Source: Thiotrichaceae bacterium UBA973
GTDB lineage: Bacteria > Pseudomonadota > Gammaproteobacteria > Eutrophobiales > Eutrophobiaceae
NCBI GenBank assembly: GCA_002292815.1
Contig: DBBX01000018.1
Span: forward strand, 61,209-125,208
Length of the DNA stretch: 64,000 bases
Reading direction: 5' to 3'
The position numbers and the translations under genes were made by a program. Shown in pieces: positions 3,585 to 15,770 of this stretch. Numbering within the stretch: position 1 is the first letter of the stretch; the number at the start of each line of letters is the position of its first letter. The notes under the pieces were generated by a model. The model ran no database searches, was not told the origin of the DNA, and was given only the letters and a program-made list of their open reading frames with translations.

Positions 3585-4028
3585 GTATTTGTGTTCATGT
3601 TAATCAATTTGGTCTCGTCAATTGCTGTTTACCAAACTTAATATTACCTGTGTCGTCTGTAATATTGAACGAATTTAAAATATTTATACGATATAAGCTC
3701 ACATATTGGCTCAGATCAATCACAATGGAAATAGTAGGGCACAGGCTACCAAAATGAAAGCACTGAGCTGCCAACTCATGCAACTCTTATGAGGGAACTC
3801 TAGTGCTTATTTTATAGTGCGGTTATACTCAATGGTCTGGAACAAATGCTCAAATAATAATAAATACCAAGCTGGAATGATTTTCATATTGAGCGAATAG
3901 AGAATTTGATTGAAATGCAGTGGCTAGAGCGATCTTGAGCAGGGGTCATGCACAGCTGATACATGATTTTATCTTATTACAACTAAACAATATAAAATTG
4001 ACTGAATAGTCAGTCTCAGGAGATAACG

Positions 4029-5435
4029 ATGTCGGATAATGTAATGAAATTAATAAAGGAAAACGATGTAAAATTTGTCGACATGCGTTTCTGTGATACC
4101 ACCGGTAAGGAACAGCACGTCACCATACCTGCCAGTACAGTTGATGCTGATTTTTTTGAAGAAGGCAAAATGTTTGATGGTTCTTCTATTGGTGGCTGGA
4201 AAGGTATAAATGAATCAGACATGGTCCTGATGCCAGAATGTGATACTGCAGTAATTGACCCTTTCTTTGATGATACTACTTTGATCATCCGTTGTGATGT
4301 TCTTGAGCCGGCAACAATGGAAGGCTATGGGCGCGATCCGCGTTCATTAGCAAAGCGTGCAGAAGCTTATTTGAAATCAACAGGTATTGCAGATACTGCT
4401 TACTTTGGTCCAGAACCGGAATTCTTTATCTTCGATGAAGTTCGTTGGGGTGATGAAATACATTCCGCATTCTATGAAGTTGATTCAGATGAGGGTTGCT
4501 GGAATAGTGATCGACTCGGCGAAGACGCTAATATAGGTCATCGTCCTGGTGTAAAGGGAGGTTATTTTCCTGTTCCGCCAGTGGATTCTGGCCAGAATAT
4601 TCGCTCAGCTATGTGTACGGTGCTTGAAGAAATGGGTGTAGGTGTAGAAGTACACCACCATGAAGTTGCAACAGCAGCACAAGCCGAAATTGGTACTGTG
4701 TTTAAAACATTGACCAGAAAAGCAGATGAAATATTGATCCTTAAGTATGTCGTGCAAAACGTCGCACACAGCTACGGTAAAACAGCGACGTTTATGCCGA
4801 AACCATTGGTTGGTGATAATGGTAGTGGTATGCATGTCCATCAGTCTTTGGCAAAGAATGGAGAGAACCTGTTTGCCGGTGATAAATATGGCGGTCTTTC
4901 GGATATGGCGTTACATTATATTGGTGGTATTTTCAAACATGCCCGTGCGCTCAATGCGTTTACCAATGCTAGTACAAACAGTTATAAACGATTAGTTAAA
5001 GGTTTTGAAGCGCCAACCATGTTGGCCTATTCAGCACGTAACCGTTCTGCCTCTTGTCGTATCCCTTGGGTCTCAAGCCCTAAGGCACGCCGCATCGAAA
5101 TGCGTTTTCCGGATTCATGCGGTAACCCTTATTTCACTTTCGCTTCATTGATGATGGCCGGCCTTGATGGTATCCAAAACAAGATTGATCCAGGCGAAGC
5201 ATTTGAAAAAGATTTATATGACCTGAGTATTGAAGAAGAAAAAGATATTCCAACCGTTTGTTCTTCTTTAGATCAAGCGTTAGAAGCACTCGATAAAGAT
5301 CGTGAATTCCTGACGGTTGGCGGCGTATTTACCGATGATATGATTGACGGATACATTGCCTTGAAGATGGAAGAGGTCACCCGTTTTCTTAGCACCACCC
5401 ACCCGGTTGAATTCGACATGTATTACAGTTTGTAA
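4029..5435 (+). CDS. glnA: glutamine synthetase type I
   Basis: 468 aa, canonical GSI N-terminus ([21 protein letters not shown]) and catalytic motifs ([10 protein letters not shown]); CAGGAG RBS upstream. Confidence 0.95.
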
Positions 5436-5639: not shown

Positions 5640-6182
5640 ATGAAGATTAAATTTTTATTATTTATAAGCCTGATATTTATTCCGGCTGTTTATGCAGAGA
5701 CCGTCTATAAGACGGTGGATGCTGAGGGAAACGCCGTTTTTTCTGATGCCCCATCAGCTGGAGCCGAAGAGATAAAAGTCAAAGAGGCTCAAACAATTAA
5801 TCCCCCGAAAGCGAGATCATTTAAACTTTCGCCACCGGAAGATAATTCAAAGAAATTTAATTATACCAAGCTTGTAATAATTAACCCTGAAAACGAATCG
5901 ACGATTCATGGTGGAGAGGGCAACGTAAATATTACAGTCACACTAGAACCGGAGCTCACTGAAATGGATGTGATGGTGTTATACCTGGATGGAAAGGAAA
6001 TGCTAAGCGGAAAGGCACCGCAATTTTTATTGACGAATGTTGATCGAGGCACACATAGCATCTCGGTAGCGGTAAAAAATAAACTCGATAAAGAACTAAA
6101 ACGCTCCGCTAAAGTGACATTTCATGTTCGCAGAACATCCATCCTCAATTCAAATAAGCCATCGCTTCGGAGCACTAATTAG
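5640..6182 (+). CDS. DUF4124 domain periplasmic protein
   Basis: Signal peptide then ETVYKTVDAEGNAVFSD motif typical of DUF4124; position between glnA and ntrB, as in Pseudomonas-type gene order. Confidence 0.7.
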   Translation: MKIKFLLFISLIFIPAVYAETVYKTVDAEGNAVFSDAPSAGAEEIKVKEAQTINPPKARSFKLSPPEDNSKKFNYTKLVIINPENESTIHGGEGNVNITVTLEPELTEMDVMVLYLDGKEMLSGKAPQFLLTNVDRGTHSISVAVKNKLDKELKRSAKVTFHVRRTSILNSNKPSLRSTN

Positions 6183-6269
6183 ATCAACTCTTCACAAAAT
6201 CCTGATCCGACTGCTTTTTCCGGTGCGGTAATGTTTGTGGAAGTCTATCCAATTAGTTAAGCTCAACGT

Positions 6270-6788
6270 ATGCGTCTAATCATTAGCTTAATCTTACTAG
6301 CCAATATGGGCTCTGTCGTTGCAGAGACTGTTTATAAAACAGTGGATGAAAATGGTAATATTATCTTTACTGATAAGCCCTCCAAAAATGCTGAAGAGAT
6401 AAAACTTCAGAAATTACAAACGATTAAAAATCCTAATCCGGCTAAGCATACGCCCAGCCCAAAGCAGGCTAAAGATAAAGGGCCGATATATAAAAAGTTT
6501 TTGATCGCTAATCCAGAAAATGAATCAGGGCTTAGAAGCAATAATGGTGATGTCACTATCTCAGTAACGCTTGAGCCGCCTTTACGTGGAGGCCATCGAA
6601 TCATAATAACTTTGGATGGTGAGGAAGTGTCAAATGGTCCTGTGACTAGTGTTTCATTACAAGATGTTGATAGAGGAACACATAGCATCAGTGCCAGTGT
6701 GGTCGATGGGAAAGCCAAAAATATGATTTCAACAAGTAGTAATTTTACATTATTACGGCAGCCCGCCCCTAGAAAGACCCCGAGATAA
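6270..6788 (+). CDS. DUF4124 domain periplasmic protein (tandem paralog)
   Basis: ETVYKTVDENGNIIFTD plus conserved NPENES...VDRGTHSIS block shared with the upstream paralog. Confidence 0.7.
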   Translation: MRLIISLILLANMGSVVAETVYKTVDENGNIIFTDKPSKNAEEIKLQKLQTIKNPNPAKHTPSPKQAKDKGPIYKKFLIANPENESGLRSNNGDVTISVTLEPPLRGGHRIIITLDGEEVSNGPVTSVSLQDVDRGTHSISASVVDGKAKNMISTSSNFTLLRQPAPRKTPR

Positions 6789-7020
6789 GAAATTAACCTC
6801 AACAAGTAGAAGTTTTTCATTCTTGCGCACGTTGGAATAACGTTCTAATACCGTCTTTTTTAAACTCCTGCGTTTTCTTTTGTCCACGTGAGATATAGAT
6901 GGTCTGCTTCTTGCTCTAATCATTGTCATATTCAAACAGTTTTTTTTATTTTTCTAAGTAATTGTTTTTATTATATTAAATATAAAAAATAATTTAACCG
7001 AAATATTAATATGTGAAGGA

Positions 7021-7037
7021 CGCACTATAATAGTGCA
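7021..7037 (+). promoter_or_regulatory. perfect palindrome CGCACTATAATAGTGCA (GCAC-N7-GTGC) with embedded TATAAT, 16 bp upstream of the ntrB start
   Basis: Inverted GCAC/GTGC half-sites with the same spacing as the enteric NtrC site (TGCACCA-N3-TGGTGCA); TATAAT at 7026-7031 fits a sigma70 -10 box occluded by the operator. Confidence 0.4.
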
Positions 7038-7052
7038 ATAATAAATATATCT

Positions 7053-8120
7053 ATGGAGACTTCAGCACAAACAGCCCTACGTACAGTTGAAAATTTAGCA
7101 ACAGCTGTGTTGCTATTCGATAAGGACCTGCACCTGATTTCAATAAATAGTGCGGGTGAAACTTTGTTATCGGTTAGCCATAAGCGTGTTTCTGGTATGC
7201 AGCCCAACCAAATTTGGCCAAATTCATCATTTTTCTATGAAGCCATACAGCGTTCTTTGTATTCAGGAACAACTTGTATAGAACGTGGGATAGACCTGAA
7301 TCTGAATAACGGCCATCAGATAAAAGTAGATTGCATGATTACACCGGTTGTTGTGGATCATGCTGCTGAAGAGATTCTGCTCGAATTAGTTGATGCCCAT
7401 GGTTTTGTCAGGGTAATGCAAGAAGTGAGTCAAGAGACTGTACAAGCAGCAGCAAAAGAATCGGTGCAGGGTATGGCGCATGAAATTAAAAATCCCTTAG
7501 GTGGGATTCGTGGAGCAGCGCAACTACTCGAAAGGGAACTTGACGATAAAGACCTGCTTGAATACACCGGTATCATTATTAATGAGTGTGATCGTTTAAG
7601 AAAATTTATTGACCGTATGTTAACTACCAGTACACATCCGGTTAAATTAGACCTCAATATTCACGAGGTGTTGGAATATGTCGTTTCAGTAGTACATGCC
7701 GAAAACGCACATAAGGTGAATATCAAGAGAGATTATGATCCCAGTATTCCGAATATAAAAGCTGACCGCGAACAGATCATTCAGGTAATTTTAAATCTAT
7801 TGCGTAACGCAGTTCAGGAAATTGACAAAGATGGTCACATCACTCTAGTTACACGTATTCAACGTCAGGTGACAATCCAGCATAAATTGAATCGGCACAT
7901 AATTGTAATCGATATTATTGATGATGGTCCTGGTATACCACCAGAGATTGAGTCTGGCGCTTTTTATCCTTTGGTAACGGGTCGTGCTGAGGGAACCGGA
8001 CTTGGTTTATCAATTGCCCAACAACTTATTCAATCTCATGGTGGTTTAATAAATTATGAACGCAAAGACAATAACACCTATTTCAGTATCTTACTCCCAA
8101 CGGAGCAATGCGATGAGTAA
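7053..8120 (+). CDS. ntrB: nitrogen regulation sensor histidine kinase NtrB
   Basis: PAS-like N-terminus, H-box HEIKNPLGGIRGAAQLL, HATPase C-terminus (G-boxes GTGLGL); 4-bp overlap with ntrC. Confidence 0.9.
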   Translation: METSAQTALRTVENLATAVLLFDKDLHLISINSAGETLLSVSHKRVSGMQPNQIWPNSSFFYEAIQRSLYSGTTCIERGIDLNLNNGHQIKVDCMITPVVVDHAAEEILLELVDAHGFVRVMQEVSQETVQAAAKESVQGMAHEIKNPLGGIRGAAQLLERELDDKDLLEYTGIIINECDRLRKFIDRMLTTSTHPVKLDLNIHEVLEYVVSVVHAENAHKVNIKRDYDPSIPNIKADREQIIQVILNLLRNAVQEIDKDGHITLVTRIQRQVTIQHKLNRHIIVIDIIDDGPGIPPEIESGAFYPLVTGRAEGTGLGLSIAQQLIQSHGGLINYERKDNNTYFSILLPTEQCDE

Positions 8121-9520: not shown

Positions 9521-10564
<1,044 letters not shown>

Positions 10565-10618
10565 CTATAATTGTAACTCAAAAGCGTCATTGCAATAAAT
10601 GATAATAATCAAGCTACT

Positions 10619-11440
10619 ATGTATGAAATGACTCAATTCCAACTGTTTTTCATTGAAAATGAAGCAATGTTGAGACTATCCAGTTTTATCACTTTGCTAT
10701 TCATACTCATGGTGCTGCAACTAGCCCGGCCAAGACGTTTACCTGTGCAAGGTAATTGGTATCGACAAGTAAATAATATTTTATTGTTGGTAGTCAATAT
10801 AATTGTTGTTCGTCTCTTGGTGCCATTGGCATTGTTTGATGTCGCAGTTTATGCGTCTGAAAAGAATATCGGTCTTTTTAATTTCGTAGAAATGCCATTA
10901 TTAATTAATATCGTTTTAACACTAATCATCTTTGATCTGCTGATTTATATTCAGCATGTTATTACACACAAAGTTAACTTCTTATGGCGGATTCACCGCG
11001 TACACCACATCGACCGTGAAGTTGATGTTACCACAGGTATCCGTTTTCACCCCTTCGAAATAGTGCTGTCCGTGTTCTATAAAATGTTGGCAGTAGTCAT
11101 TATTGGGCCAGTAGCATTTGCGATTATTCTTTATGAAATATTGTTGAATGCCGCGGCATTATTTACACATAGTAATATCTTACTTAATCCTAAACTGGAT
11201 AATTTCCTTAGAACGATCATCGTTACGCCTGATATGCATAGAATCCATCATTCAGTTCTGAACGATGAAACGAATAGTAATTATGGCAATATATTTTCAA
11301 TCTGGGATAAATTATTCAAAACATATCGCCTTTTTCCAAAGGCGGGTTATGATGATATGGTGATTGGCCTCAACGAATTTCGAGAGCCCGCATCAGGTCA
11401 ATTATTACAATTATTGAAAACCCCCTTTATTAGCAGGTGA
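10619..11440 (+). CDS. sterol desaturase / fatty acid hydroxylase superfamily membrane di-iron enzyme
   Basis: Histidine boxes HVITHKVNFLWRIHRVHH and HRIHH within a polytopic membrane protein; alternative start possible at 10667. Confidence 0.7.
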   Translation: MYEMTQFQLFFIENEAMLRLSSFITLLFILMVLQLARPRRLPVQGNWYRQVNNILLLVVNIIVVRLLVPLALFDVAVYASEKNIGLFNFVEMPLLINIVLTLIIFDLLIYIQHVITHKVNFLWRIHRVHHIDREVDVTTGIRFHPFEIVLSVFYKMLAVVIIGPVAFAIILYEILLNAAALFTHSNILLNPKLDNFLRTIIVTPDMHRIHHSVLNDETNSNYGNIFSIWDKLFKTYRLFPKAGYDDMVIGLNEFREPASGQLLQLLKTPFISR

Positions 11441-11443
11441 AAT

Positions 11444-12565
11444 ATGAATAAAGAAAGTGCCGTTCTTGAACGTTATTCTGAAGGCGCAAATGAGCGCCAG
11501 GAATCTTTGTGTTGTCCGGTTAATTATCAAGTAGATTTATTAAAAATATTGCCGGAAGAAATTATTGAAAAAGATTATGGCTGTGGCGATCCATCACGTT
11601 ATGTTCGAGAAGGGGATGTGGTGCTCGACTTGGGTAGTGGCAGTGGCAAGATTTGTTATATGGCCGCACAACTAGTCGGAGATAATGGCATGATCATCGG
11701 TGTCGATATGAATAACGACATGTTGGCTTTGGCACGCAAATATCAAGCTGAAATGGCAGAGAAAGTTGGTAATGACCGCGTTCAATTTTTAAAAGGAAAA
11801 ATTCAAGACTTAGCTCTTGATGTTGACTTAATGGAATCATGGTTGAAATCAAATCCTGTTACGAGTGCAGATGAACTCGCAGCATTAGAAAATTGGAAAT
11901 TAAAACAGTCGCAACAATCGCCATTGATCGCAGACAACTCAGTTGACCTAGTAATTTCAAATTGTGTATTAAACCTGGTGAGTGATCAGGAGAAGCAACA
12001 ATTAGTTACCGAAATATTTCGCGTTACTAAACCCGGTGGCCGAATAGCAATATCAGACATCATCAGTGATGAAATAATTCCGGAATATTTAAAAAATGAT
12101 AAACAGCTATGGAGTGGTTGTATCTCAGGTGCGTTTCAGGAACTGGAGATGTTGCAGATGTTTCAAGAAGCCGGTTTTATTGCCGTCTCATATGACAAGT
12201 GGTCAGAAACACCCTGGCAGGTTGTTGAAGGTATTGAATTTCGTTCAGCAACGTTAACAGCGATCAAACGAGAACAAATAGAATGTGTCGATAAAGGTCA
12301 TACGGTTATCTACAGTGGGCCCTTTAGTCTTGTGGTCGATGATGAAGGACATCAGTTCCCGCGCGGTGAAAGAATGGCAGTTTGCGAACGGACCTTTAAT
12401 GTATTAATTAATGAACCGTATAAAGATGATTTTATTGCTATCGAACCATCAACCGAGCGTGAACCAGTGCCAGGGGATGTCCCCGCAGGAACTCGACGAC
12501 CAGCATCAGAAACCAAACATGCAAACTATACAAATAGTGATAAATCACCTGGATCATGTTGTTGA
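11444..12565 (+). CDS. ArsM/AS3MT-like SAM-dependent methyltransferase (all four ArsM-type cysteines present)
   Basis: VLDLGSGSG motif I; VISNCVLNL, FRVTKPGGR and LWSGCISGA blocks parallel ArsM; N-terminal CC pair and GCGDP cysteine; 4-bp gap to the upstream gene implies an operon. Confidence 0.65.
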   Translation: MNKESAVLERYSEGANERQESLCCPVNYQVDLLKILPEEIIEKDYGCGDPSRYVREGDVVLDLGSGSGKICYMAAQLVGDNGMIIGVDMNNDMLALARKYQAEMAEKVGNDRVQFLKGKIQDLALDVDLMESWLKSNPVTSADELAALENWKLKQSQQSPLIADNSVDLVISNCVLNLVSDQEKQQLVTEIFRVTKPGGRIAISDIISDEIIPEYLKNDKQLWSGCISGAFQELEMLQMFQEAGFIAVSYDKWSETPWQVVEGIEFRSATLTAIKREQIECVDKGHTVIYSGPFSLVVDDEGHQFPRGERMAVCERTFNVLINEPYKDDFIAIEPSTEREPVPGDVPAGTRRPASETKHANYTNSDKSPGSCC

Positions 12566-12677
12566 TTTAAAAAGATAAACTCATTCTTAGCTAAGATAGT
12601 TAACTACCTGTAAGTTTTAAAGAGTATAGAAACACAGTAATATTCTGATTAAGAATTATAATTTGGGGAGTATTTGT

Positions 12678-13544
12678 ATGAGTGCGACATTAATCGACGG
12701 TAAGGCTATTTCCGCAGCTGTTAGGACAGAATGGAAAAAACGAGCTGATAGGCTTAAGGAAAAAGGTGTACTACCTGGTCTTGCGGTTATTATTGTCGGG
12801 GATAATCCTGCGTCGAAACTTTATGTCAGTAACAAGATTAAGGCTTGTCATGAAGTTGGCCTGCATTCTGAGGTGCATGATCTACCCGAAGATGTATCTG
12901 AAAAAATGTTGCTGAAGTTAATCGAGGAATTAAATGAAGCAAAAAAAATAAACGGTATTCTGGTGCAATTACCATTACCGAAACACATTGATGAAAGCAA
13001 AGTGTTGGAAGCGATAAAACAGGATAAGGATGTTGATGGTTTCCATCTCTACAATGTCGGCGCATTGATGACCGGCAATACTGTTTTTCCACCGTGCACA
13101 CCGTTCGGTGTAATGCGCATGTTGAGTTATTGTAAAGTCCCTATAGCTGGACAAAATGCAGTTATTGTTGGCAGGAGTAATATAGTTGGCAAGCCAATGG
13201 CGATAATGTTGTTACAGGAAGATGCAACAGTAACAATATGTACTTCGAAGACGAAAGACCTGGAAAAACATACAACTAATGCTGATATTCTGGTTGTTGC
13301 AACTGGCCGACCAGAAATGATCAAGGCGGAGCATGTTAAGCCAGGTGCTGTAGTCATTGATGTTGGAATAAACCGTCTTGAAAGTGGCAAATTAGTTGGT
13401 GACGTTGATTTTGATGAGGTAAAAGAAGTAGCTAGCTTGATCACGCCAGTGCCGGGTGGTGTTGGCCCCATGACGATTACTATGCTGGTTGCAAATACGG
13501 TGATGGCGGCAGAGAGAGACAGCGGTAATATACCAACTGATTAA
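12678..13544 (+). CDS. folD: bifunctional methylenetetrahydrofolate dehydrogenase/cyclohydrolase
   Basis: [13 protein letters not shown]-terminus, GRS(N)IVGKP motif, about 289 aa; start at the ATG at 12678. Confidence 0.95.
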
Positions 13545-14974: not shown

Positions 14975-15454
14975 TTAATTTATCAAATTATTATGTTTAT
15001 TTGTTGATTTGGATTTAATAATCGCGGTGCCGTAGGCCAGTACTTCAACCGAGCCTATGCTATCTCTGCGTCCTTTAGAAATAGAAGAGGTTTCCATTTT
15101 CACATTGAATACATAGTTGGCACCTTGGCAAGCAGCCTGTTTCTTCATGCGCAAGATCGCTTCACGCCGAGCTCTATCAATCAATGTTTCATAACTGCTG
15201 ATGCGACCGCCTACGATCGATCTCATGCCAGATACAAATTTTTTAAAGAAATCAATAGATATGACGACATTTCCGTAAACCATTTTCGTAGAACAGGAAG
15301 TAAAGTCCCGAGGCAGGTGTTTTGTTGCTATTGCTGGGATATGTCTCAGGGATGATTCGCGATTAATTATCGATTTGTAATGCAGGGTCTCCAGGTATTG
15401 ACCAACACCAAAACCTAATGCTAACAGTGTTAAAAATAGTATCAGCTCATACAT
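14975..15454 (-). CDS. YbjQ/UPF0145 (DUF74) family protein with N-terminal TM anchor
   Basis: C-terminal YbjQ-like domain (GANYVFNVKMETSS...AYGTAI) preceded by a hydrophobic helix. Confidence 0.7.
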   Translation of the reverse strand: MYELILFLTLLALGFGVGQYLETLHYKSIINRESSLRHIPAIATKHLPRDFTSCSTKMVYGNVVISIDFFKKFVSGMRSIVGGRISSYETLIDRARREAILRMKKQAACQGANYVFNVKMETSSISKGRRDSIGSVEVLAYGTAIIKSKSTNKHNNLIN

Positions 15455-15455
15455 A

Positions 15456-15770
15456 TCAATCGAGCTTTACCGCAGTGCCGTAGGTAAATAGTTCGGACGC
15501 ACCTTGTGTTATGGATGATGTTGAGAAACGGATATTCAGAACAGCATTGGCTCCAATCGACTGCGCTTGCTCGGTCATTCGCGCGATAGCTTCTTCACGG
15601 GATTCATGCAGTAACTCGGTATAGCCTTTGAGTTCACCGCCAAAGATGTTTTTTAAACCAGCCATAATATCGCGACCAGCATGTTTTGCTCTGACGGTGC
15701 TGCCTTGAACAAGGCCAAGATGCTGAGTAATTGTTTTACCCGGTACACTTTCCAGTGTCGTTAGAATCAT
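15456..15770 (-). CDS. YbjQ/UPF0145 (DUF74) family protein
   Basis: 104 aa; DIMAGLKNIFGGE...GANAVLNIRFSTSS...TYGTAVKL typical of YbjQ; strong AGGAGG RBS. Confidence 0.8.
   Translation of the reverse strand: MILTTLESVPGKTITQHLGLVQGSTVRAKHAGRDIMAGLKNIFGGELKGYTELLHESREEAIARMTEQAQSIGANAVLNIRFSTSSITQGASELFTYGTAVKLD

Follow-up and report, generated by a model that had tools for sequence, protein, structure and literature searches.

A hydroxylase-methyltransferase gene pair from a Thiotrichaceae genome, probable remnant of a proteobacterial organoarsenical cluster

The 64,000-nucleotide stretch of DNA analysed here (hereafter the window) belongs to contig DBBX01000018.1 of Thiotrichaceae bacterium UBA973, a marine gammaproteobacterium, and carries side by side on its + strand a gene for an FA_hydroxylase-superfamily protein (FAH, ORF1) and a gene for an S-adenosylmethionine (SAM)-dependent methyltransferase resembling ArsM (MT, ORF2). 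This FAH-MT pair is probably the trimmed remnant of a widespread proteobacterial organoarsenical cluster, of arsenosugar or arsenolipid type, in which both enzymes would serve a shared pathway. Direct evidence covers the fold and motifs of the proteins, their family placement and their gene neighbourhoods. It ties a highly conserved ArsM-like family, whose relatives were found in at least 592 proteobacterial species by a scan of one genome per species, to ArsS, two glycosyltransferases, a disulfide reductase, a lipid-hydroxylase-type oxygenase and a VTT/DedA protein, and it makes the pair, judging by sequence, a candidate for bacterial arsenic-lipid chemistry. Both genes are strongly conserved and are not chance open reading frames; they lie, 3 nt apart, exactly where a first-pass annotation of the window had predicted a two-gene, same-strand pair. 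In what follows, L-numbers designate compared loci and P-numbers protein representatives.

10619..11440, + strand: FAH gene (ORF1), 273 aa, a membrane di-iron oxygenase of the fatty-acid hydroxylase / sterol desaturase superfamily
11444..12565, + strand: MT gene (ORF2), 373 aa, ArsM-like, BgArsM-type and SAM-dependent; predicted substrate trivalent arsenic or an organoarsenical

The two encoded enzymes

MT is a class I SAM methyltransferase, its core matching the Pfam families Methyltransf_31, 25 and 11, and it matches the solved ArsM/AS3MT chains with E-values of 1e-32 to 1e-27. With phmmer, residues 162-346 align to the arsenic-binding and C-terminal domains, which gives the protein the three-domain architecture of these enzymes. 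The predicted structure points the same way: when the AlphaFold2 model (pLDDT 84.5) was compared with the PDB using Foldseek, the top 13 matches were all ArsM/AS3MT (E 1e-24 to 1e-21, the next match being at 2e-11), and these alignments span 325-362 columns, C-terminal domain included. The three-domain fold is held in common with CmArsM and human AS3MT (PDB 4FR0, 4FSD, 6CX6, 8XT7) at TM scores of 0.55-0.69 over about 340 columns, and the cysteines of the YGCG, SNCV and GC..GA motifs align. MT differs from these two enzymes in being just 26-30% identical to them, and in having a helical insertion of about 37 aa, a non-aligning N-terminus and an invariant Cys-Cys terminus. The features of the protein are as follows:

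11510..11515, + strand: Cys23-Cys24, at the position of the first catalytic cysteine (BgArsM Cys30); invariant in 120 homologs and at 82/82 loci
11579..11647, + strand: GCGD (Cys47, equivalent to CmArsM Cys72), followed by SAM motif I, VVLDLGSGSG (11618-11647, residues 59-68); aligned with the YGCG of CmArsM and AS3MT, translation checked
11816..11926, + strand: insertion (residues 125-161, about 37 aa) absent from CmArsM/AS3MT, a predicted two-helix hairpin that splits the HMMER match into 32-124 and 162-346
11957..12130, + strand: SNCV (Cys174) and SGCISG (Cys226), counterparts of the As(III)-binding Cys174 and Cys224 of CmArsM; aligned at residue level and invariant in the family
12284..12385, + strand: Cys281 and Cys314 of the C-terminal domain, 96-97% conserved in close homologs
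12545..12565, + strand: flexible C-terminal tail SPGSCC with a final, conserved Cys-Cys, then the stop codon; tail pLDDT <50

The first-pass annotation had called the protein ArsM-like with all four catalytic cysteines, and this holds. YGCG (C47), SNCV (C174) and SGCISGA (C226) align residue for residue with C72, C174 and C224 of CmArsM, while the counterpart of the remaining CmArsM cysteine, C44, is C23/C24, placed by the spacing in BgArsM rather than by direct alignment. BgArsM, from Burkholderia gladioli, is 378 aa long and carries its cysteines at 30, 54, 181 and 233, and the spacings of 24, 127 and 52 residues between them are identical to those separating Cys23, Cys47, Cys174 and Cys226 of MT. 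In addition to this set, and unlike BgArsM, MT carries conserved cysteines at 24, 281 and 314; all ten of its cysteines are 96-100% conserved among 120 homologs of at least 67% identity.

Two further traits mentioned in the first-pass annotation are real without being peculiar to this protein. The insertion, put there at 40 aa, measures about 37 and is predicted to form two helices (residues 127-136 and 142-158) within a confidently modelled block (pLDDT 92-97); it is not unique to the window MT, because the arsinothricin-ArsM model (NF040538) aligns straight through it in a single stretch (residues 17-338), so that the insertion is common to both. The Cys-Cys that ends the tail is likewise invariant in the 120 homologs, present at 80-82 of 82 genome loci, and found in many relatives of 31-52% identity, some of which lack the catalytic cysteines; P0138, a member of NF040538, also carries a near-terminal Cys-Cys. 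The tail is predicted to be disordered. In ArsL, a C-terminal RCCLKC tail binds As(III), and by analogy the Cys-Cys tail of MT may be a metalloid-capturing arm.

Cys281 and Cys314 are also kept in many of the 31-52% relatives, including some without the catalytic cysteines. In six distant representatives of 31-37% identity (P0165, P0194, P0195, P0228, P0243, P0257), the ArsM catalytic cysteines have been lost and Cys281, Cys314 and the terminal Cys-Cys kept; this suggests that the C-terminal four-cysteine module predates the arsenic-binding site and is the more general of the two. The window MT has a singularity of its own in this region: residues 343-346 (12470-12481) read P-G-D-V, while x-W-C-A stands at this place in 113 of 121 family members, and it is thus without the near-invariant Trp344-Cys345 that would provide an eleventh conserved cysteine. 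At the DNA site concerned, L004, L005 and L069 retain TGG TGT; the P-G-D-V could be either a real allele or a local assembly difference.

Among the curated NCBIfam models, the best-scoring is that of arsinothricin ArsM (NF040538: 356.4 bits, cut-off 500), followed by arsenite methyltransferase (NF008823: 185.4 bits in two stretches, cut-off 263) and arsenosugar ArsM (NF038099, AsSugarArsM: 125.8 bits, cut-off 400). P0138, which does pass NF040538 with 512 bits, shares only about 39% identity with the window MT, whereas representatives about 50% identical to the window MT score as that protein does. From these scores and the divergence of P0138, MT is taken to belong to a separate family, sister to the arsinothricin ArsM clade. 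Since all three curated thresholds are missed, it is filed here as a member of an unnamed family of the ArsM superfamily rather than as ArsM proper; it is ArsM-type in predicted fold, domain architecture and cysteine set, and would work like BgArsM and other ArsM enzymes. The ArsM-like label of the first-pass annotation is to be narrowed accordingly: the enzyme is not a canonical ArsM and lies nearest to arsinothricin ArsM. For BgArsM, methylation of a trivalent organoarsenical has been demonstrated both in vivo and in vitro, and this substrate is made by a neighbouring radical-SAM enzyme. In the family of the window MT, that radical-SAM partner is ArsS (TIGR04167) and not ArsL, and the ArsL and ArsQ neighbours of an arsinothricin-type locus are absent beside the pair, whose neighbours are hemB and folD, with no ars operon.

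FAH scores 104.5 bits against Pfam FA_hydroxylase (PF04116; cut-off 31) and carries the complete set of histidine boxes on a multi-helix membrane core, in agreement with its first description as a di-iron enzyme of this superfamily.

10955..11251, + strand: histidine boxes HVITH (10955-10969), HRVHH (10994-11008) and HRIHH (11237-11251), plus H144 and H184; coordinates checked by translation

The boxes begin at residues 113, 126 and 207 and follow the pattern HX3H, HX2HH, HX2HH. Ten histidines (H113, H117, H126, H129, H130, H144, H184, H207, H210, H211) are invariant among 51 homologs of 46-88% identity, and those of the boxes together with H144 and H184 are the presumed di-iron ligands. A sequence search of the PDB with FAH found nothing, and its best NCBIfam match, OlsE (NF052566), is reached at 86.6 bits, far under the 475 of that equivalog. 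PF04116 membership and the histidine boxes are in common with OlsE and with yeast Scs7p (PDB 4ZR0). FAH is however 16-18% identical to Scs7p and without its cytochrome b5 domain, and it differs from OlsE, a bacterial ornithine-lipid hydroxylase, in having arsenic-type genes as partners rather than lipid A or ornithine-lipid genes.

Gene neighbourhoods of the methyltransferase and the hydroxylase

Carriers of MT relatives include Gamma-, Beta- and Zetaproteobacteria as well as Magnetococcales, the best 80 matches all being 57-88% identical. Methylotetracoccus oryzae C50C1 and Cupriavidus sp. NPDC089707 are cultivable carriers, and the closest relatives of the window pair are found in metagenome-assembled genomes of uncultured marine Gammaproteobacteria. 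Open reading frames within 5 kb of MT were clustered over 82 loci, with the following recurrent partners (score and cut-off in brackets):

ArsS equivalog, about 320 aa: 42/82 loci, same strand, directly upstream of MT at a median of 51 bp (TIGR04167, 455.7 vs 300)
MerA-like FAD oxidoreductase (disulfide reductase; FADox): 36/82 loci, further upstream of MT
VTT/TVP38 (VTT/DedA) membrane protein: 10/82 loci, further upstream of MT
TIGR04283 glycosyltransferase (GT283): 19/82 loci, mostly downstream of MT (274.7 vs 182)
TIGR04282 glycosyltransferase (GT282): 16/82 loci, downstream of MT (204.6 vs 134)

With ArsS and glycosyltransferases as neighbours, the MT family normally resides in the cluster called 'arsenosugar biosynthesis' by NCBI, a naming in which the ArsS-glycosyltransferase cluster is already recognised. 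The logic is that of the arsenosugar system of Synechocystis, where ArsM-type methylation is followed by C-As bond formation by the radical-SAM enzyme ArsS. The differences are that the window MT belongs to another ArsM clade (125.8 bits with NF038099), that the window is without ArsS or glycosyltransferase, and that the proteobacterial clusters add the hydroxylase, the VTT/DedA protein and the MerA-like reductase, which the papers found on the cyanobacterial system do not mention. Directly upstream of ArsS-MT, four loci (L012, L023, L028, L046) carry a PHO4/PiT gene (PHO4, 199 bits), and two others (L017, L019) an ABC permease and ATPase which matched the generic ABC_tran and BPD_transp_1 only and whose motifs read as PstB-like. 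Phosphate transporters in this position are consistent with the entry of arsenate via phosphate uptake.

MT is often paired solely with the MerA-like disulfide reductase. An arrangement (rho-trx-)hemB / FADox-MT without ArsS is seen at L044, L049, L057, L058, L060, L062, L063, L065, L067, L071, L075, L077, L079 and L082, a set that includes loci labelled Pseudomonadales, Porticoccaceae or Oceanicoccus and some stretches without hemB. At L002, which belongs to the clade of the window, MT stands beside hemB with no hydroxylase, and a MIP channel and a low-molecular-weight phosphatase adjoin hemB (3710-4757); the best matches of this phosphatase are arsenate reductases, below cut-off (TIGR02689, 94.9 vs 157.6), a weak extra link to arsenic.

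The arrangement of the window, with FAH-MT divergent from hemB, occurs at 11 of the 82 MT loci, and at 8 of these the gap between FAH and MT is -4 to +5 nt. Moreover, for 27 MT protein clusters the longest contig is exactly as long as that of a hydroxylase cluster. The trees used here are neighbour-joining trees built on BLOSUM distances without support values, and statements on clades are approximate for that reason. In them, the MTs of the hemB/FAH-MT loci form one clade nested among ArsS-linked MTs, together with those of L002 and L011 (hemB/MT without FAH); the arrangement of the window would therefore have been derived once, through loss of the adjacent ArsS. The same FAH orthogroup is, however, also found inside the ArsS operons of four other MT clades, in three different positions:

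L022: hemB / FAH, 23 bp, ArsS, 41 bp, MT
L029: FADox-VTT-ArsS-MT-GT283-FAH-GT282, with FAH overlapping both neighbours
L070: FAH-VTT-FADox-ArsS-MT-GT283-GT282
L038: FAH upstream of VTT...FADox-ArsS-MT-GT-GT

An independent sample centred on FAH (80 metagenome loci, 50 with at least 3 kb of flank) gives the same picture. A VTT gene lies directly downstream of FAH at 15 of the 50 loci, and at least one of MT, ArsS, GT283 and GT282 is present at 11, where a rough estimate assuming one or two such genes per genome would expect them in no more than about 1% of 16-kb stretches taken at random. One of the sampled loci has the order:

L096: FAH-VTT-FADox-ArsS-MT-GT-GT

Three others (L100, L106, L143) read FAH-VTT-ArsS-GT283-GT282 with no MT of this family in the operon, so that ArsS and the hydroxylase also co-occur without an adjacent MT.

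Explanations for the pair

Taken as a trimmed remnant, the pair would derive from a cluster whose full form reads FAH - VTT/DedA - MerA-like FAD disulfide reductase - ArsS - ArsM-like MT - TIGR04283 glycosyltransferase - TIGR04282 glycosyltransferase, and the rest of the pathway may or may not be encoded elsewhere in the genome; a search for ArsS homologs found none on window-type contigs among its best 120 matches, whose scores are near-identical. MT, as a three-domain enzyme of BgArsM type, would use Cys174 and Cys226 to bind a trivalent arsenical between them, Cys23/24 and Cys47 joining in a disulfide cascade and the methyl group coming from SAM; the flexible Cys-Cys tail, by analogy with ArsL, probably captures the metalloid or passes it on. 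FAH, presumably an O2-dependent di-iron oxygenase of the membrane, would have as its substrate a lipid or some other hydrophobic compound of this pathway; it might, for instance, make a hydroxylated lipid acceptor or modify the lipid part of the product. FAH and VTT/DedA are both membrane proteins of lipid-handling superfamilies, and with their recurrence among the partners an arsenical linked to a lipid becomes plausible. A FAD disulfide reductase as recurrent partner fits too, because ArsM uses a disulfide-cascade mechanism (described in reference 21 of PMC8552651). Of the two chemistries first proposed, the metalloid-lipid link has thus gained in substance, in that ArsS and the arsenosugar glycosyltransferases are the main neighbours of MT and the FAH orthogroup recurs among them, usually beside VTT/DedA, while methylation of a thiol-containing lipid found no support.

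Several observations weigh against a shared pathway in an arsenical cluster, and most would be expected if the two genes were simply adjacent, FAH being a housekeeping membrane-lipid hydroxylase at the hemB locus and MT a stand-alone arsenite-detoxifying enzyme co-transcribed with it by chance. Since the hemB/FAH-MT loci form a single clade, the arrangement counts as one evolutionary event. FAH is kept at the identical syntenic position at L084, where MT is gone entirely, and it is intact at L089 beside an MT pseudogene (6809-7100; order hemB/FAH/pseudo-MT/folD) in which codons 1-3 are fused to residue ~284 onward, with an in-frame internal stop, the remnant still ending in ...ACC*. Conversely, L002 and L011 keep MT beside hemB without FAH. 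Other FAH orthologs occur in different contexts (L085, L087) or beside rhodanese genes, and about 60% of the loci of the FAH orthogroup show no cluster gene within the sampled flank. Finally, no relative of ArsS, of the glycosyltransferases, of VTT or of the FAD reductase lies within the 64-kb window. The FAH-MT link is facultative and dispensable in both directions, and the pairing as such, whose conservation elsewhere the first-pass annotation had wished to see checked, is confined to one lineage, with FAH-only, MT-pseudogene and MT-only relatives. Adjacency without a shared pathway is nonetheless judged unlikely: it does not account for FAH being embedded, with overlaps or tiny gaps and in three positions, in operons of ArsS, MT and glycosyltransferases that belong to four other clades, for the 11 in 50 unbiased FAH loci that carry MT, ArsS or a glycosyltransferase, or for the coupling of the FAH stop to the MT start at most loci.

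A different doubt bears on arsenic itself. The 'arsenosugar' names of the two glycosyltransferases are themselves context-based. MT falls below the cut-off of every NCBIfam arsenic model, and it might act on another soft nucleophile, for instance selenium, tellurium, antimony, sulfide or some thiol metabolite; proteobacterial clusters of ArsS type would in that case yield a product without arsenic. Housekeeping genes as immediate neighbours, with no ars genes seen adjoining the pair, would suit such a role, as would the extreme conservation of the family, at least 58% identity over several classes of Proteobacteria, a level uncommon for an accessory gene of detoxification; superfamily relatives include selenoprotein variants, going by NCBIfam model names, and the rhodanese genes beside a sister clade of FAH hint at sulfur or selenium chemistry. 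Set against this are the complete four-cysteine arsenic-binding signature, spaced as in an enzyme shown to methylate a trivalent organoarsenical, the ArsS equivalogs that score over cut-off, and the phosphate (arsenate) transporters and ArsC-like/MIP pair near some family members, which together leave a non-arsenic substrate with a slim chance. The divergent hemB gene could also suggest tetrapyrrole metabolism, with for example an oxygenase and a methyltransferase modifying a porphyrin intermediate, and hemB is indeed adjacent to MT or within ~3 kb of it at many loci and with three partners (FAH, FADox, ArsS). Yet rho-trx-hemB is an ordinary conserved synteny, and MT has the fold and cysteine set of ArsM and nothing like those of tetrapyrrole methylases. 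This role is highly improbable and was rejected, as hemB synteny persists whatever the partner of MT and most ArsS-linked MT loci have no hemB nearby.

As for the rhodanese genes, they adjoin the FAH sister clade at L086 (5391-6750), L088 (6001-7777) and L120 (1073-2415). At L088 the start of the rhodanese gene overlaps with the stop of FAH, and MerC is encoded at a distance of 4 kb. Among NCBIfam models, NF045521 ('rhoda_near_glyco') fits the rhodanese best, at 75.9 vs 145, and the name of this model may hint at a connection with these glycosyltransferase clusters.

The interest of an organoarsenical remnant lies in what it could supply. Arsenosugars and arsenolipids are widespread in marine biomass, and to our knowledge only the first two steps of their biosynthesis (ArsM, ArsS) are known, from a cyanobacterium only; we likewise know of no genes for bacterial arsenosugar lipids with mixed acyl/ether chains. 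Such lipids were described in an ocean-particle survey (preprint) that proposed a bacterial source. The MT family and its recurrent partners provide concrete candidate genes for the lipid steps and for this mixed acyl/ether chemistry. More ambitiously, FAH and MT might form the conserved core of a bacterial arsenolipid pathway which, together with VTT/DedA, ArsS and both glycosyltransferases wherever these occur, would link an arsenosugar, as methylated arsenic head group, to a membrane lipid of hydroxylated or ether type. This extension is doubtful, but if true, the arsenosugar lipids of the surface ocean would have a so far overlooked source in abundant Proteobacteria of heterotrophic, methanotrophic and iron-oxidising lifestyle. 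The literature search found no paper linking arsenite methyltransferase or ArsM with a fatty acid hydroxylase or sterol desaturase, and the accessions TIGR04167, TIGR04282 and TIGR04283 are mentioned in the papers found in passing only. Nor did it find a description of this MT family as the proteobacterial partner of ArsS, of the recurrent hydroxylase and VTT, or of the reduced FAH-MT operon, all of which appear to be new; current annotation leaves the family unnamed ('methyltransferase domain-containing protein').

The operon and its surroundings

The pair is transcribed divergently from hemB (porphobilinogen synthase, 503 bits), with ntrB and ntrC upstream and folD, an M48 peptidase and two YbjQ-like genes downstream. 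As had been reported at first, MT lies outside a classical ars operon: no arsR/arsB/arsC-type gene was seen adjoining the pair, in an annotation that covered its immediate neighbours. The GC content is about 40% and uniform over the 64 kb, and a plasmid comparison, bearing on a mobile-element origin, gave no meaningful matches. Two non-coding features frame the genes:

10535..10618, no strand: divergent intergenic region between hemB (- strand) and FAH, 84 bp, presumed promoter region
11432..11446, + strand: gene junction AGGTGA (Shine-Dalgarno-like, includes the FAH stop TGA), AAT, then the MT ATG

FAH ends ...AGC AGG TGA, and the AGGTGA that spans its stop is a plausible ribosome-binding site for MT. 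L004, L005 and L069, the closest relatives, keep most of the block around TGTAACTCAAA in the divergent region, and L006 and L001 keep part of it. A promoter consensus scan of 10535..10618 gave one weak minus-strand match only, regional matches being rarer than in shuffles, and none of the promoter-like matches found is oriented to drive the + strand FAH-MT operon. No terminator-like site was found in the hemB/FAH intergenic region, between FAH and MT or after MT, and no family was matched in a search of Rfam.

The folD gene follows MT on the same strand (12678-13544), its likely start being the ATG at 12678, 112 bp past the MT stop, and not the TTG at 12663. Because the interval (12566-12677) is without a terminator-like site and the gap shrinks to 8-36 bp in relatives (L008, L050, L003), co-transcription of MT with folD, a gene of one-carbon metabolism, is possible. 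Two pairs of tandem paralogs, both syntenic in relatives, are also found in the window. The one at 5640-6788 encodes two secreted proteins of DUF4124 type (180 and 172 aa), a label taken from the syntenic genes in L001, L084 and L089, the window pair itself being without an NCBIfam match. The other, at 14975-15770, encodes two YbjQ-like 'putative heavy metal-binding' proteins of 159 and 104 aa.

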